Of a DNA stretch of 64,000 nucleotides, positions 2,757 to 64,000 are shown piece after piece. Each line of letters starts with the position of its first letter. Position 1 is the first letter of the stretch. Source of the DNA: Eledone cirrhosa. Its lineage: Eukaryota. The notes under the pieces were generated by a model. It worked only from the letters and a program-made list of their open reading frames with translations. It was not told the origin of the DNA and searched no databases. The stretch is from positions 19,220,001 through 19,284,000 of the forward strand of contig OZ024756.1 in the NCBI GenBank assembly GCA_964016885.1. Direction: 5' to 3'. The position numbers were made by a program, and so were the translations under genes.

Positions 2757-3013
2757 GAATATATAATCCTTATCGATCCCTCTTCGGATTTTAGTCATCA
2801 TATTTATTGTAACACAGAGGGTGTGGTAAGATACCAGCTGGACCATAACGCACCAGAGTACTCAATACTTAGGGTAGTAGAGTGGGTGATAGGAAAAGGT
2901 ATGACCCCGACGGCAGAGCTCAAGCCGTTTCGACGGGTATTTCAGAACATTTCATCCTGAAATAGCCGTCGAAACGGCTTGAGCTCTGCCGTCGGGGTCA
3001 TACCTTTTCCTAT
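2757..3013. mobile_element. Small fold-back element with 3' half of a hammerhead ribozyme (family A, copy 1)
   Basis: Lies between (GT)n and (TA)n. Near-perfect palindrome 2889-3013; each arm reads GAAA-cggc-loop-gccg-TC-ggggtc (stem III plus GUC site). Homologues at 12440 and 47170. Confidence 0.7.
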
Positions 3014-3171
3014 ATATATATATATATATAGATATATGAGGTTATAGTGTAATAGTTCACTATTTTCATTGGTAAGATGAGTTAAGCTCAATGCACATTT
3101 TTACCCTTTGTTCTTCAGTTATAGTAGCAGAGCGCGCGCCTGCATGTGTGTCTATATATATAGATATTTAG

Positions 3172-3430
3172 TGAAGGTGCGTGTCTGAATGGTTAGAGAC
3201 TTGGATTCACAATCATGAGGTTGTGATTTTGATTCCTAGGCGGGGCAATGCATTATGCCCTTGAGCAAGACATTTTATTTCACGTTGCTCCTTCTGCCTG
3301 GAATTGCGACCGACAGATAGTATTAGCAATTGGAAAGACCAATGGAAACATTGTTTCCTCGGTCCAATTTGACGACCTCCACCCCACTTGTTAAGGAAAT
3401 GAGGTCAGGAATCTTGTTGATCAACTGTCA
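3172..3430 (+). mobile_element. tRNA-derived CORE-like SINE
   Basis: A/B-box-like head followed by ccttgagcaagaca..ttatttcacgttgctcc; homologous to 25000-25220 and 43455-43695. Confidence 0.75.
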
Positions 3431-3890
3431 ATATATGTGTGTGTGTATGTGTGTGTTTTTAACAGTTACATCATGTAAAAGTCATGTAGCTATTTAAAAC
3501 ACAGATACATACACTATTATGTACACTTGTGCTTTGTTTTCTGATTGTATTACACACATATCTACTGTAGTGTGTCCCTGTTCTACTACATATATATACA
3601 CAGTGGAATATTGTTAGCAATCAGGTGATAGATGTACTAATGCAAATATTTACATAACTAGTAACTAACGTTAAACCATACAACAGAGTAGAGATAAACT
3701 ATCTCTAAGTTATCAGTAATCCTGATCTGTGACACAGCTTTGATACCTGGTTGACTCATTTTCATTTCACAGTTCTACCTGCGATTCCTGATAAACAGAG
3801 GTGTAACTAAGGTATGTCAAGCAAGCACGGCATATGTCATGAGCACCACTTGAAGGGAGCACCACCTGAACTAAGAACACTTTCTAATAA

Positions 3891-4276
3891 CCCTTTAGCA
3901 TTTACTTTACTCTATTGTATTTTCATGGTAAAAGTTTTAGCTCACATAATGTCGAATCTATGAGATTTTGATATTTATTTTGAGGCAGTGGGTTGGCAGC
4001 GTTCGACAACATGCTTAGCAGCATAGAGTTACGTCCCTTTACGATCTGATTTCAAATCCCGGCGAAGTTAACTTTGCCTTTCATCCTTACGGAGTCGATA
4101 AAATAAAGTGCCAGTAATGCACTGAAATAATTACTGGCCTTGTGCCTAAAGTAGAAACAATTATTTATTTTGAGAACAATACCTTAACATCAGAATGACT
4201 GCCCAGTTATGGTCAGTTTGAACAGAAAGAGTCGAGAGAATTCTGGCGGGATACAGCTGGTTTAAATGCTAAACAG
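3891..4276 (-). mobile_element. piggyBac-type MITE interrupted by a SINE
   Basis: ccctttagcattta...taaatgctaaa termini. SINE at 3985-4161 is flanked by the 13-bp TSD tatttattttgag (3972-3984 and 4162-4174). Confidence 0.8.
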
Positions 4277-4909
4277 AGAAATCTTCTTTAAATGTTGAAA
4301 AAAAAAAGAAACTTCTTCAGATGTATGCTGTATTTGAATATCATGGATGAGAAAAAGCACTATGCAATTGGTATTTTGGTATTTTTGAATTGATTTTATG
4401 GTTATCTGATAGATGGGTGTCAGATGTTTGGGCAGGGGCACAGTTTCACTGCTTTCCATAGCTGCTATTTTCCCTAGTTACACCTCTGCAGATAGATCAG
4501 CTCACACCAAGCTAACTTTTTCACAAAACATTTATGAATCATCAAAACTTAACAGAATATCTTTTATTCCATTAAAGTATGCAGCAGTGATGTAAACTGT
4601 GTGTTAAATAAAGTAAGCACTTAACATTTTATCAAAATCCAGTCCACAATAAATCTCACTTTTGTTATTCATTTTTAAGCACAAGCCAGTGAGAAAGCCT
4701 CTACATGGTTGCTCACCCTGCTAGAAATAGCAGACAAATCTCCTTCAAATCACACTCCTGCTGTATTAGAAAAGGAAAGATAGACAGGAATATATGATAG
4801 TAATAATGGTAATATTCTAAGTACAAAACTCATTACAAATTAGCCATGGAAACACTCTAAATACATCCAACATTCATAGTAGTCTCTCAGAGAGGAAAAC
4901 AATGCCATG

Positions 4910-5150
4910 TTTGTAGGGGTTGGTAAAATATAGGACCGGTCTAGGGTGATGTATTGGCAGAATTATAGTGTAGGGGTTGATAAAATATACGACCTGTCTA
5001 GGGCAGTGGATTGGTAGAATTATAGAACAGGGGTTGATAAAATATAGGACCAGTCTGGGGCAGTGGATTGGCAGAATTATAGTGTAAGGGCTGGTAAAAT
5101 ATAGGACCAGTATATGGTGGTGGATTGACAGATTTGTTATAGTGTTGGAT
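4910..5150. repeat. Degenerate ~58-bp tandem repeat, ~4 copies
   Basis: Recurring gtaggggttggtaaaatataggaccggtctagggcagtggattggcagaattatagt. Confidence 0.75.
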
Positions 5151-5494
5151 ACAAAAAGACAGGGATGGTGGGTACAATAAAATCAAATAAAAAAAAAATA
5201 AAATTAACAATTACAATAATAAAAATTCCCCAATAGGGGGGAGAACCACCCAGGAGTGACTCAGGTATCCCATTAATCCTGAACCACCTGACACTTCAAG
5301 GATACCCCTCTCATCCTCAAATCAACCAGCCTACAAGCGCATGCTCAGAGTAGGCCCAATAACAATAACAATAATAACCTGTCAGCCAGATAAAACAGTA
5401 TCCAGAAGAAAGCTGTTTAAAACTCATCAATAAAATCATTCTTCTTCAAAATGATCTATTGATCTGACATAGTCTGCCATTACTGCAACAGGCG

Positions 5495-62588: not shown

Positions 62589-62594
62589 TAGAAG

Positions 62595-63130
62595 ATAATT
62601 GTTTCTACAAGGCCAGCAATTTGAAGGGGCGAGGAAAGTCGATTAAAACGACCCAAGTGTATTACTGGTACTTTATTTTATCATCCCCGTAAGGATGAAA
62701 GGCAAAGTTAACCTCAGCGAGATTTGAACTCAGATCATAAAGGCCCATAACTCTATGCTGCAACGCATTGGTGTTAGACGCTCAACCAATACTTGTTTCT
62801 ACTTTAGGCACAAGGCCAGCAATTACCCAGTGCATTACTGGTACTTTATTTTTTCGACCCCCGTAAGGATGAAAGGCAAAGTCAACCTCGGCGGGATTTG
62901 AACTCAGATCGTAAAGGGACGTAACTATGCTGGAAAGCATGGCGTCCGACCCTCTACCGATACTGCCAATCCACCGCCCTGAGTTCAGATCCCGCCAAGG
63001 TTAGCTTAGCCTTTCATCCTTACGGGGTCGATAAAATTAACCACCAGTAATGCGCTGGAGTGGATTTAATCAATTTTCCCCTCCCACAAAATTGCTCAAC
63101 CAAGACGCTCAACCAATACTGCCAATCCAA
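62595..63130. mobile_element. Meta-domain-like SINE cluster (two on minus, one inverted on plus)
   Basis: Consensus matches; orientation switch near 62980. Confidence 0.8.
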
Positions 63131-63493
63131 AGATAATGATTAAGAGAATGCCCAGTCCACCAGCAGAAACATTTCAGCCAGCAACCACTGACCATTGACC
63201 TAAACAAATGATAACAACCTCAATTCTGGATTTATTGATATTTATATATAACAGAATATATAGATTTTTCGTTTCTGAATTTGTTTAGCAAGATTCTTTA
63301 TCTGAAATCGTGTGTTGAAACTGATATTGTTATACTTTGGGAGGGTCATGTTGCCAATAAGAAACACACGCACCAGTTGCTTTCACTTCAATTTATTATA
63401 TATTTATAAATTTATAAATTTACAAATCTACAAATTTATAAATTTCTGGTTGGTTGGTTGGTTGGTTCCACAACCAGATAGTTGTTTATATAT

Positions 63494-63538
63494 AGTCATA
63501 GTCCTTTCGTCACACACTCTGTGACCTCTTCAGTGACT
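63494..63538 (-). ncRNA. Minimal type I hammerhead ribozyme, mirror copy
   Basis: Reverse complement of 63814-63858. Confidence 0.7.
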
Positions 63539-63813
63539 GGGGATTCCTTTCTTTGTTTCTGTGCCTTTCCTTTCTTCTGTCCTACGCCATTTTGTTTCTG
63601 TGTGTGTGTTGTGTGCTCAGTTTGCGCATGCGCCACATCCGGGTGTCTGTGTGTGTTTGTGTTCATTTATCTATTTGTTTATTTATTTATTTACATGTTG
63701 TTGTAAATAAAGGATGTGGCGCATGCGCAAACTGAGCACACAACACACACACAGAAACAAAATGGCGTAGGACAGAAGAAATGAAAGGCACAGAAACAAA
63801 GAAAGGAATCCCC

Positions 63814-63858
63814 AGTCACTGAAGAGGTCACAGAGTGTGTGACGAAAGGACTATGACT
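63814..63858 (+). ncRNA. Minimal type I hammerhead ribozyme
   Basis: agtca, CTGAAGA, g-gtcac-agagtgt-gtgac, GAAA, ggac, TA, tgact (one unpaired G at the base of stem II; very short stem III). Confidence 0.7.
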
Positions 63859-64000
63859 ATATATAAACAACTATCTGGTTGTGGAACCAACCAACCAACC
63901 AGAAATTTATAAATTTGTAGATTTGTAAATTTATAAATTTATAAATATATAATAAATTGAAGTGAAAGCAACTGGTGCGTGTGTTTCTTATTGGCAACAT

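Follow-up and report, generated by a model that had tools for sequence, protein, structure and literature searches.

Short hammerhead ribozyme elements lie at several places in a 64,000-nucleotide (nt) stretch of the Eledone cirrhosa genome (assembly GCA_964016885.1, contig OZ024756.1, here C17:19220001-19284000; hereafter the window), and the question they raise is whether they are mobile elements in their own right or the ends of something larger. A sequence-only reading had proposed the former: a guild of six unrelated, non-autonomous families without open reading frames (ORFs), inserted at (TA)n and mobilised by Penelope-like elements (PLEs). PLEs are the retroelements closest to telomerase; how an internal start is selected on the RNA of these elements, and what gives their copies a tail at one side and inverted 5′ ends, are open questions, and the single in vitro study that mapped two PLE starts found no conserved signal. 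Comparison with the 3.0-Gb genome indicates that the listed elements are almost certainly 5′-truncated, often head-to-head inverted, (TA)n-flanked pseudo-long terminal repeat (pLTR) ends of Penelope-like families. To the whole chain, in which such truncated ends are combined with a Hydra-family hairpin fixing the start of the reverse transcriptase (RT), we assign a probability of roughly 0.6. Statements below on PMC8557442, PMC4209133, PMC11167929, PMC3846280, PMC7229834, PMC13282606 and preprint 10.64898/2026.07.22.740005 refer to the portions of these sources available to us.

Hammerheads and the elements that carry them

The type I hammerhead layout (stem I, CUGANGA, stem II, GAAA, stem III, UH, stem I) is present at every complete site that had been listed: 11372+ with its mirror arm (family B), 49320+ (C), 49585- (D), 56427- (E) and 63819+/63533- (F). 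A strict descriptor accepted three arms of the window (49320+, 63819+ and 63533-), whereas 30 dinucleotide shuffles averaged 0.1. It rejected 11372 (base of stem II imperfect), 49585 (stem II weakened in that copy), 56427 (stem I bulged) and an additional, previously unlisted hammerhead at 51241-. CTGANGA..GAAA matches at 1971, 9511, 10008, 13638, 17452, 47300, 19266- and 3118- failed the same descriptor. The density of hammerheads in the window, which is rich in microsatellites and tandem arrays, is ordinary: 47 per Mb versus about 75 per Mb in 40 arbitrary 10-kb stretches (30 descriptor matches in 400 kb). The hammerheads are real and the window is typical of the genome. Of 260 matches in an Rfam scan, the best 150 include no hammerhead family; the microsatellite-driven miRNA matches of that scan were disregarded.

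Stems differ among genomic copies and their pairing is kept. Stem II of family C, which the search pattern left unconstrained, occurs in 37 distinct sequences, 27 of which outfold 38 or more of their 40 shuffles, and stem III is self-complementary in 35 of 38; in family E, stem I changes on both strands (AGATTC/GAATCT and AGCTTC/GAAGCT). The core and three stems with covariation identify a type I hammerhead, for which self-cleavage is predicted. The sites described as half ribozymes are real truncations, belonging to family A (2971, 12550-12610, 47250-47290), family E (12370-12412) and family B (47395-47440), and the reported (TA)n flanks are there.

The core is the canonical CUGANGA in B, C and E. 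Family A has a U3-A8 variant in 43 of 46 copies and C3-G8 in none, about 20 of the loci having been selected on that core; its 5′ half reads ACCCC-UUGANAA with position 7 free, stem II is 60 nt long, and the "half ribozymes" of this family are truncations within that stem. With this 5′ half found, a non-hammerhead or type II ribozyme was ruled out for family A. Descriptors built on CUGANGA overlook families A and G (for G, see below). Exact-pattern matches in the genome, which count arms and not insertions and for each of which a reversed control gave 0, number 26,784 for C, 21,617 for E, 3,537 for the complete A ribozyme, 1,935 for B, 478 for G, and 263 and 143 for D; family F has 40 BLAST matches.

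The sequence-only reading had called for a search for copies joined to RT/GIY-YIG ORFs. Families A, B, C, E and F do have such copies, with ORFs directly attached to ribozyme ends, and "ORF-less" does not hold as a property of these families. A 786-aa open frame of family A, with RWR, DKT, YRDD, CxCx5C, CxxC and CxH motifs, lies between two ribozymes in locus L073; longer copies have a 1-kb untranslated region (UTR) and an ORF, and Pfam gave no match for the protein. Family B forms 6.5-7 kb tandem units with an ORF (non-contiguous ORF matches near B in L150 and L157 were excluded from counts), family E has an ORF after the tail in L089 and L103, and in family C the end of the ORF, a 0.9-kb UTR and the ribozyme are contiguous in L177/L178. 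For family F the ORF ends just upstream of the ribozyme end in several of 20 loci, and for D one decayed Hydra-type ORF lies 1.5 kb upstream (L356) among 71 loci (60 short and 11 extended). The B units (L349:750-7647, L350, L351) also have a 3′ UTR of about 3.9 kb that is AT-/GT-rich, and an Asn/Thr/Lys-rich insert between RT and endonuclease.

"Unrelated" fares no better: identity to the A protein is 46% for B, 52% for E, 38% for C and 22% for F. In A, B, C and E one ORF, encoding RT plus an endonuclease of GIY-YIG type at the C-terminus, is joined to a pLTR ribozyme, and insertion is preferentially into (TA)n. RWR and SDKT occur in A, B and E (the comparison for C excludes that region, which was not recovered), and CxCx5C, CxxC and CxH without CCHH in A, B and C (the C-terminus of E is known only as tblastn pieces). 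The marks given for the Hydra clade by Craig et al. 2021 (PMC8557442) are RWK-like, DKT, CxCx5C, CxxC and CxH motifs and no CCHH, together with (TA)n targeting, hammerheads and one octopus family (Hydra-1_Obim, from Octopus bimaculoides). On motifs and by-eye likeness to published Hydra proteins, including Hydra-1_Obim, we assign A, B, C and E to the Hydra clade; D probably belongs there as well. Family F appears to be a Nematis/Neptune-type PLE: its C-terminal GIY-YIG domain has CCHH and its linker reads CX4CxxC, within the CX2-5CxxC form of that type, and its RT and GIY-YIG matches both lie under the Pfam cut-off (RVT_1 sub-threshold). DKS replaces the DKG of those PLEs, the spacing is nearer to the Nematis rows by eye, and the placement, by motifs, does not separate Nematis from Neptune.

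Truncation, inversion and (TA)n insertion of pLTR ends have all been published before. The published Hydra-clade PLEs (PMC8557442) share with ours the C-terminal GIY-YIG, pLTR hammerheads, (TA)n insertion, inverted 5′-truncated copies and a tail at one end only. The window families differ from Hydra-1_Obim in their hammerhead and so are not the same family; tails are 60-140 nt here and 30-40 nt in the published clade, the B unit is 6.5-7 kb versus less than 3 kb, and A has its U3-A8 core and 60-nt stem II. The minimal PLE hammerheads of Cervera and de la Pena 2014 (PMC4209133) likewise have a palindromic stem III and an extra base after A9. That paper reports a U3-A8 core variant in Schistosoma Cercyon and opposite-strand pairs 100-700 bp apart, and reads mostly solo copies as truncated PLEs; A, E and G differ in having real monomeric stems III, and copy numbers here reach tens of thousands per family. 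Penelope-like families have been annotated in Octopus vulgaris, with ribozymes unmentioned in the available portion of that paper (PMC13282606). The sequence-only reading, which had granted that its novelty would fall if the copies were truncated ends of known PLEs, is right about type I hammerheads, the PLE link, TA targeting and stem covariation; its guild gives way to truncated and inverted pLTR ends of autonomous PLEs of a known kind.

The downstream hairpin, the two 3′ ends and family G

A second shared motif lies 25-77 nt past the cleavage site; its first-form pattern has 55,208 exact matches in the genome and its control 0. The motif is a bulged hairpin, RCUC-[3-5 bp]-loop-[3-5 bp]-UN-GAGY, with an RCUC/GAGY base, a 2-nt 3′ bulge and an upper stem specific to the family: TAC/GTA in A and D, TGC/GTA in E, CAG/CTG and CAA/TTG in C, TGTA/TACA in B and TGGTT/AACTA in G. 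A scan detected 27 hairpins in 400 kb and 0-2 in 10 shuffles. With pairing left free, full pairing occurred in 22 of 33 sequence matches versus 13 of 209 in shuffles, and the 16 recurring stem types form 44 of 48 pairs, equalled by none of 10,000 permutations; a family-level permutation (60 of 87 pairs) was set aside because it included long-range, mis-paired matches. The closing pair covaries (n = 184; A-U 155, G-C 15, A-C 7, G-U 7). G-U-type variants (TGC/GTA, CAG/TTG, TAT/GTA) pair in the sense strand only, and loop length varies between 3 nt and over 60 nt. Inspection of published consensi by eye shows the G-C form of the hairpin after the hammerhead in Hydra-2_Amil (coral) and Hydra-2_Ajap (sea cucumber), two copies at the 5′ end of Hydra-1_Ajap, and partial variants in Hydra-1_Crog (copepod).

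A string search of the available supplement of PMC8557442 gave no paired hairpin outside the Hydra consensi, and the words "hairpin" and "stem-loop" are absent from its main text; the available portions of PMC4209133 and of the retrozyme preprint describe no such hairpin either. Our literature search, beyond whose reach lay subscription papers, Repbase, Dfam and preprint supplements that may bear on novelty, found no description of the hairpin or of twin priming in PLEs. The covarying paired hairpin, the pairing of long with short ends described below and family G, all three resting on sequence comparison and not found in print, would be the additions to the known core.

Each listed family has two sharp 3′ ends at (TA)n, one short and one long; for A-E they lie at +17/+97 after the cleavage site in A, +70/+208 in B, +21/+89 in E, about +33/+92 in D and about +43-52/+133 in C. 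The first hairpin starts 6-9 nt 3′ of the short end in all five, and read-through copies of A, B, G and a further family, H, have a second hairpin 6-7 nt 3′ of the long end, which in family A is clean (12 of 12 paired). These hairpins sit in the 5′ UTR, directly before the ORF; exact read-throughs from tail to ORF number 23 for one A subfamily. A hairpin past the long end of family F in L224, a single case, was read as a nested G-like insertion and left uncounted. In the Hydra families the hairpin likely fixes the start of reverse transcription. In the anole PLE Poseidon, two internal RT starts bracket the tail (Frangieh et al. 2024, PMC11167929), and we infer by analogy that the two ends are RT starts of this sort, placed by the hairpin.

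Family G came to light through the hairpin scan, at 41894-42131. Its units of 595 and 611 nt have a longest stop-free stretch of 96-101 codons and recur in tandem at spacings of 594-618 nt; the 13 read-throughs seen all enter another G unit, and ORF matches near G in L267 and L365 are non-contiguous and uncounted. The core is U3-A8 in 18 of 18 loci unselected on it, which rules out a ribozyme-less or Naiad end. Both hairpins are kept and there is one 3′ end; no head-to-head pair was seen in 56 loci with a match. In a pattern-selected set of 33 5′ ends, 14 lie between -1 and +26 relative to the predicted cleavage site, whereas the interval from -118 to -2 has none; this pile-up is an indirect sign that cleaved RNA may be the template of G and that its hammerhead may cleave in vivo, and TA microhomologies may explain the scatter. 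An ORF-less tandem unit with a type I hammerhead is what defines a non-LTR retrozyme (PMC7229834; preprint 10.64898/2026.07.22.740005), and G shares this together with the proposed mobilisation by PLEs. The six listed families, whose units carry ORFs, fall outside that definition. G departs from typical retrozymes in its length (about 600 versus about 300 nt), its U3-A8 core, its mostly dispersed and 5′-truncated copies and a cis-element held in common with Hydra PLEs. A long perfect internal hairpin lies inside the loop of its second bulged hairpin (41894-42131 -; L271, L286, L363-L366). At least seven further hammerhead families occur in arbitrary 10-kb stretches (L224, L229, L230, L233, L234, L242, L244, L247, L254, L255), and the L234 family has a full Hydra-type ORF and both hairpins.

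Inverted pairs and the mechanism of insertion

Among 79 distinct head-to-head pairs with readable ends, arms below 12 nt being left out, 74 join a long to a short arm, 3 are short+short and 2 long+long. The arm that reaches further 5′ in the 74 is the long one in 24 and the short one in 26, with 24 ties. Where references spanned both arms, the summed arm lengths mostly equal the distance within about 5 nt. The two arms of one insertion are nearly identical, and inversion breakpoints vary between copies.

The 5′ ends cluster in the ribozyme or at its edge: 30 of 40 bystander ends of A lie at -48 to -23, and other clusters stand at about -44 in E and at -124 in C1. They may reflect RT stalls at the folded ribozyme or a discrete end of the RNA. 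In A copies that bear the start of the ORF the 5′ boundaries are scattered, from beyond -1000 to +72, with only 3 of 23 at -38 to -41, and a single start site as their boundary is unsupported. C1 copies often begin at -124 at a short palindrome (window 49251; L147, L169, L072, L192). A pyrimidine tract with YAG, possibly a splice acceptor (compare D. virilis Penelope), lies at the 5′ strand of stem I (L085, L089, L094 and L103 of E; L197 and others of D) or in loop II (L073:3340-3360 of A), and such sites coincide with many clustered 5′ ends. PLE ends of different kinds also stack in each other's (TA)n flanks, with chimeric-looking junctions (L224:4327-4440, L284, L304, L197).

The mechanism that we propose is as follows. 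The RT-GIY-YIG protein, probably a dimer, would bind two hairpins of a more-than-unit RNA and nick both strands of a (TA)n target. One cDNA would be primed at each site through TA microhomology; synthesis of both would usually halt within the folded ribozyme or close to it, and the two would be joined through an overlap of 0-5 nt, giving a short inverted end. The ORF-less 600-nt G, which keeps ribozyme and hairpins, would probably be copied in trans, often from RNA pre-cut by its U3-A8 hammerhead. In Poseidon both target strands are nicked and extended, a dimer is predicted, and ribozyme cleavage is dispensable for insertion in vitro (PMC11167929). That element differs in belonging to another clade and in having its starts within the ORF, and the available portion of the paper describes neither a conserved paired signal nor a long+short rule. 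A wider claim, to which we would give even odds, is that Hydra-clade PLEs (coral, sea cucumber and this genome) have a pair of hairpins that each set an RT start 6-9 nt upstream, with one target strand primed per site, explaining both tail and inversions, and that the G retrozyme rides by means of these hairpins, its U3-A8 hammerhead cleaving in vivo.

Several observations weigh against a hairpin that sets the RT start. The second hairpin of family E is a variant without an upper stem, at 9 nt, and that of family H has an imperfect upper stem; those of B and G are long-looped, and minimum-energy folding gave their pairing in one of the three copies folded. No read-through copy of C or D was found in which a second hairpin could be seen. 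Family F obeys the long+short rule in 13 of 13 cases without an RCUC hairpin, and by eye the hairpin was not recognised in two of six published consensi (Hydra-1_Amil, Hydra-1_Obim). In G the first hairpin is intact, but an end in (TA)n at that place is absent from all 100 matches listed, which makes the hairpin alone insufficient; G lacks a TA 6-8 nt upstream of it, an explanation that is post hoc. Poseidon uses its start sites equally between strands in vitro and starts in an AC-rich stem-loop (PMC11167929). Most loci, finally, are query-selected, many from the start of contig C1, as are several of the clustered 5′-end sets.

One alternative accepts truncated PLE ends and lets the hairpin act on DNA or in expression, as an endonuclease site that resolves an intermediate, an internal promoter, or a translation element of uncapped post-cleavage RNA; the short end would be an endonuclease cut in folded-back cDNA. 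The tail has been ascribed to endonuclease resolution (PMC8557442), in D. virilis it is needed for endonuclease recognition (as cited in PMC11167929), palindromes at inverted junctions have been explained by self-priming (PMC3846280), and the near-identity of arms within one insertion and the 5′ UTR position just before the ORF agree with such a role. Fold-back self-priming, however, predicts that the long arm is always further 5′, and of the 74 pairs 26 have the short arm further; a long arm that simply folds back is therefore unsupported, two end-joined cDNAs fit better, and the long+short rule with either arm further 5′ favours twin priming. Sense-only G-U-type pairing and loops so variable in size suit a folded strand, not a duplex site, and a hairpin after both ends at the same distance counts against a role in DNA or expression. 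We regard this alternative as rather unlikely.

The guild, in which non-autonomous mini-elements amplify as short units, would account for the vast excess of short over full copies (one A subfamily has 23 exact tail-to-ORF read-throughs, whereas complete A ribozymes number 3,537 and hairpin matches 55,208), for the 5′-end clusters of A, E and C1 and for G, which is truly ORF-less. The ORF-bearing copies of A, B, C, E and F, beside which stands one D locus, largely refute it for those five families, and proteins 38-52% identical and inversion junctions that vary among copies make it very improbable. The short copies may instead be run-off cDNAs from a discrete RNA 5′ end, set by a pLTR start site or a splice acceptor that lies within the ribozyme or shortly upstream of it, and not RT stalls. 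Both arms often end together near stem I (about -141 in B, about -44 in E), stem I of D and E is preceded by YAG-like sequences, and the end of a D. virilis intron maps to helix I (PMC4209133). The scattered boundaries of ORF-start A copies and the query selection of several clustered sets speak against run-off, which we hold to be doubtful; it is compatible with the hairpin model.

Under the hairpin model, the question of the PLE start becomes directly testable in a family that combines an intact frame of 786 aa and a known (TA)n target with a covarying hairpin of 25 nt, spaced at a fixed distance from each of the two ends. The hairpin suggests a minimal cis-element for copying a cargo RNA, and family G would tie a non-LTR retrozyme by sequence to one particular clade of PLEs.

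Features of the window

Table. Coordinates of ribozyme-bearing ends and bulged hairpins (window positions)
Position	Strand	Family	Feature	Details
2811-3013		A	head-to-head inverted end	long arm - 2811-2945, short arm + 2948-3013; both truncated within hammerhead stem II
2858-2883	-	A	bulged hairpin	upper stem TAC/GTA; 8 nt past short-end site
11147-11713		B	inverted end	short arm - 11147-11360, long arm + 11365-11713; assigned to Hydra clade
11372	+	B	hammerhead core	stem II about 110 nt; stem III palindromic; predicted cleavage after 11503
11581-11663	+	B	bulged hairpin	upper stem TGTA/TACA, long loop; 7 nt past short-end site; z -3.27
12280-12412	-	E	long end	5′-truncated within hammerhead
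12438-12613	-	A	long end and short inverted piece	hairpin 12488-12513
41894-42131	-	G	3′ part of ORF-less 595-618 nt unit	U3-A8 hammerhead; copy begins 6 nt past predicted cleavage site; hairpin (GCTC/GAGC form) 41978-42002; not in the sequence-only list
47163-47310	-	A	older long end	hairpin 47209-47234, upper stem TAT/ATA
47325-47445	-	B	short end	truncated within stem II
49251-49422	+	C	short end	minimal hammerhead, complete, with core at 49320; stem III palindromic; cleavage predicted after 49371
49461-49618		D	old inverted end	hammerhead core 49585 and hairpin 49486-49507 on the long arm (-); short arm, inverted, + 49590-49618
49814-49900	+	E-type	tail-only fragment	hairpin 49832-49853
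51135-51269	-	C, second subfamily	short end	hammerhead core 51241; not in the sequence-only list
56365-56527		E	short and long arms	hammerhead complete on the short arm (-), core 56427; long arm + 56447-56527, beginning near cleavage site
63276-64000		F	inverted end	long arm - 63276-63703; short arm + from 63711, running about 24 nt beyond window; minimal hammerheads 63533- and 63819+; no RCUC hairpin found

Fragments of a non-LTR reverse transcriptase C-terminus lie beside PLE ends at 20047-20640 (+), 11679-12077 (+) and 56150-56290; from their motifs we take these to be RTE-like. Another non-LTR reverse transcriptase fragment, with QGSVLGP and YVDD motifs, lies at 23116-23511 (+). Two large minisatellites occupy 25822-34631 (220 copies of a 40-mer) and 58210-62587 (157 copies of a 28-mer), the latter yielding long repetitive open frames. 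A repeat of about 120-240 nt resembling a short interspersed nuclear element is found in tandem and inverted arrangement at 22176-22725, 55087-55563, 57217-57770 and 62620-63090.

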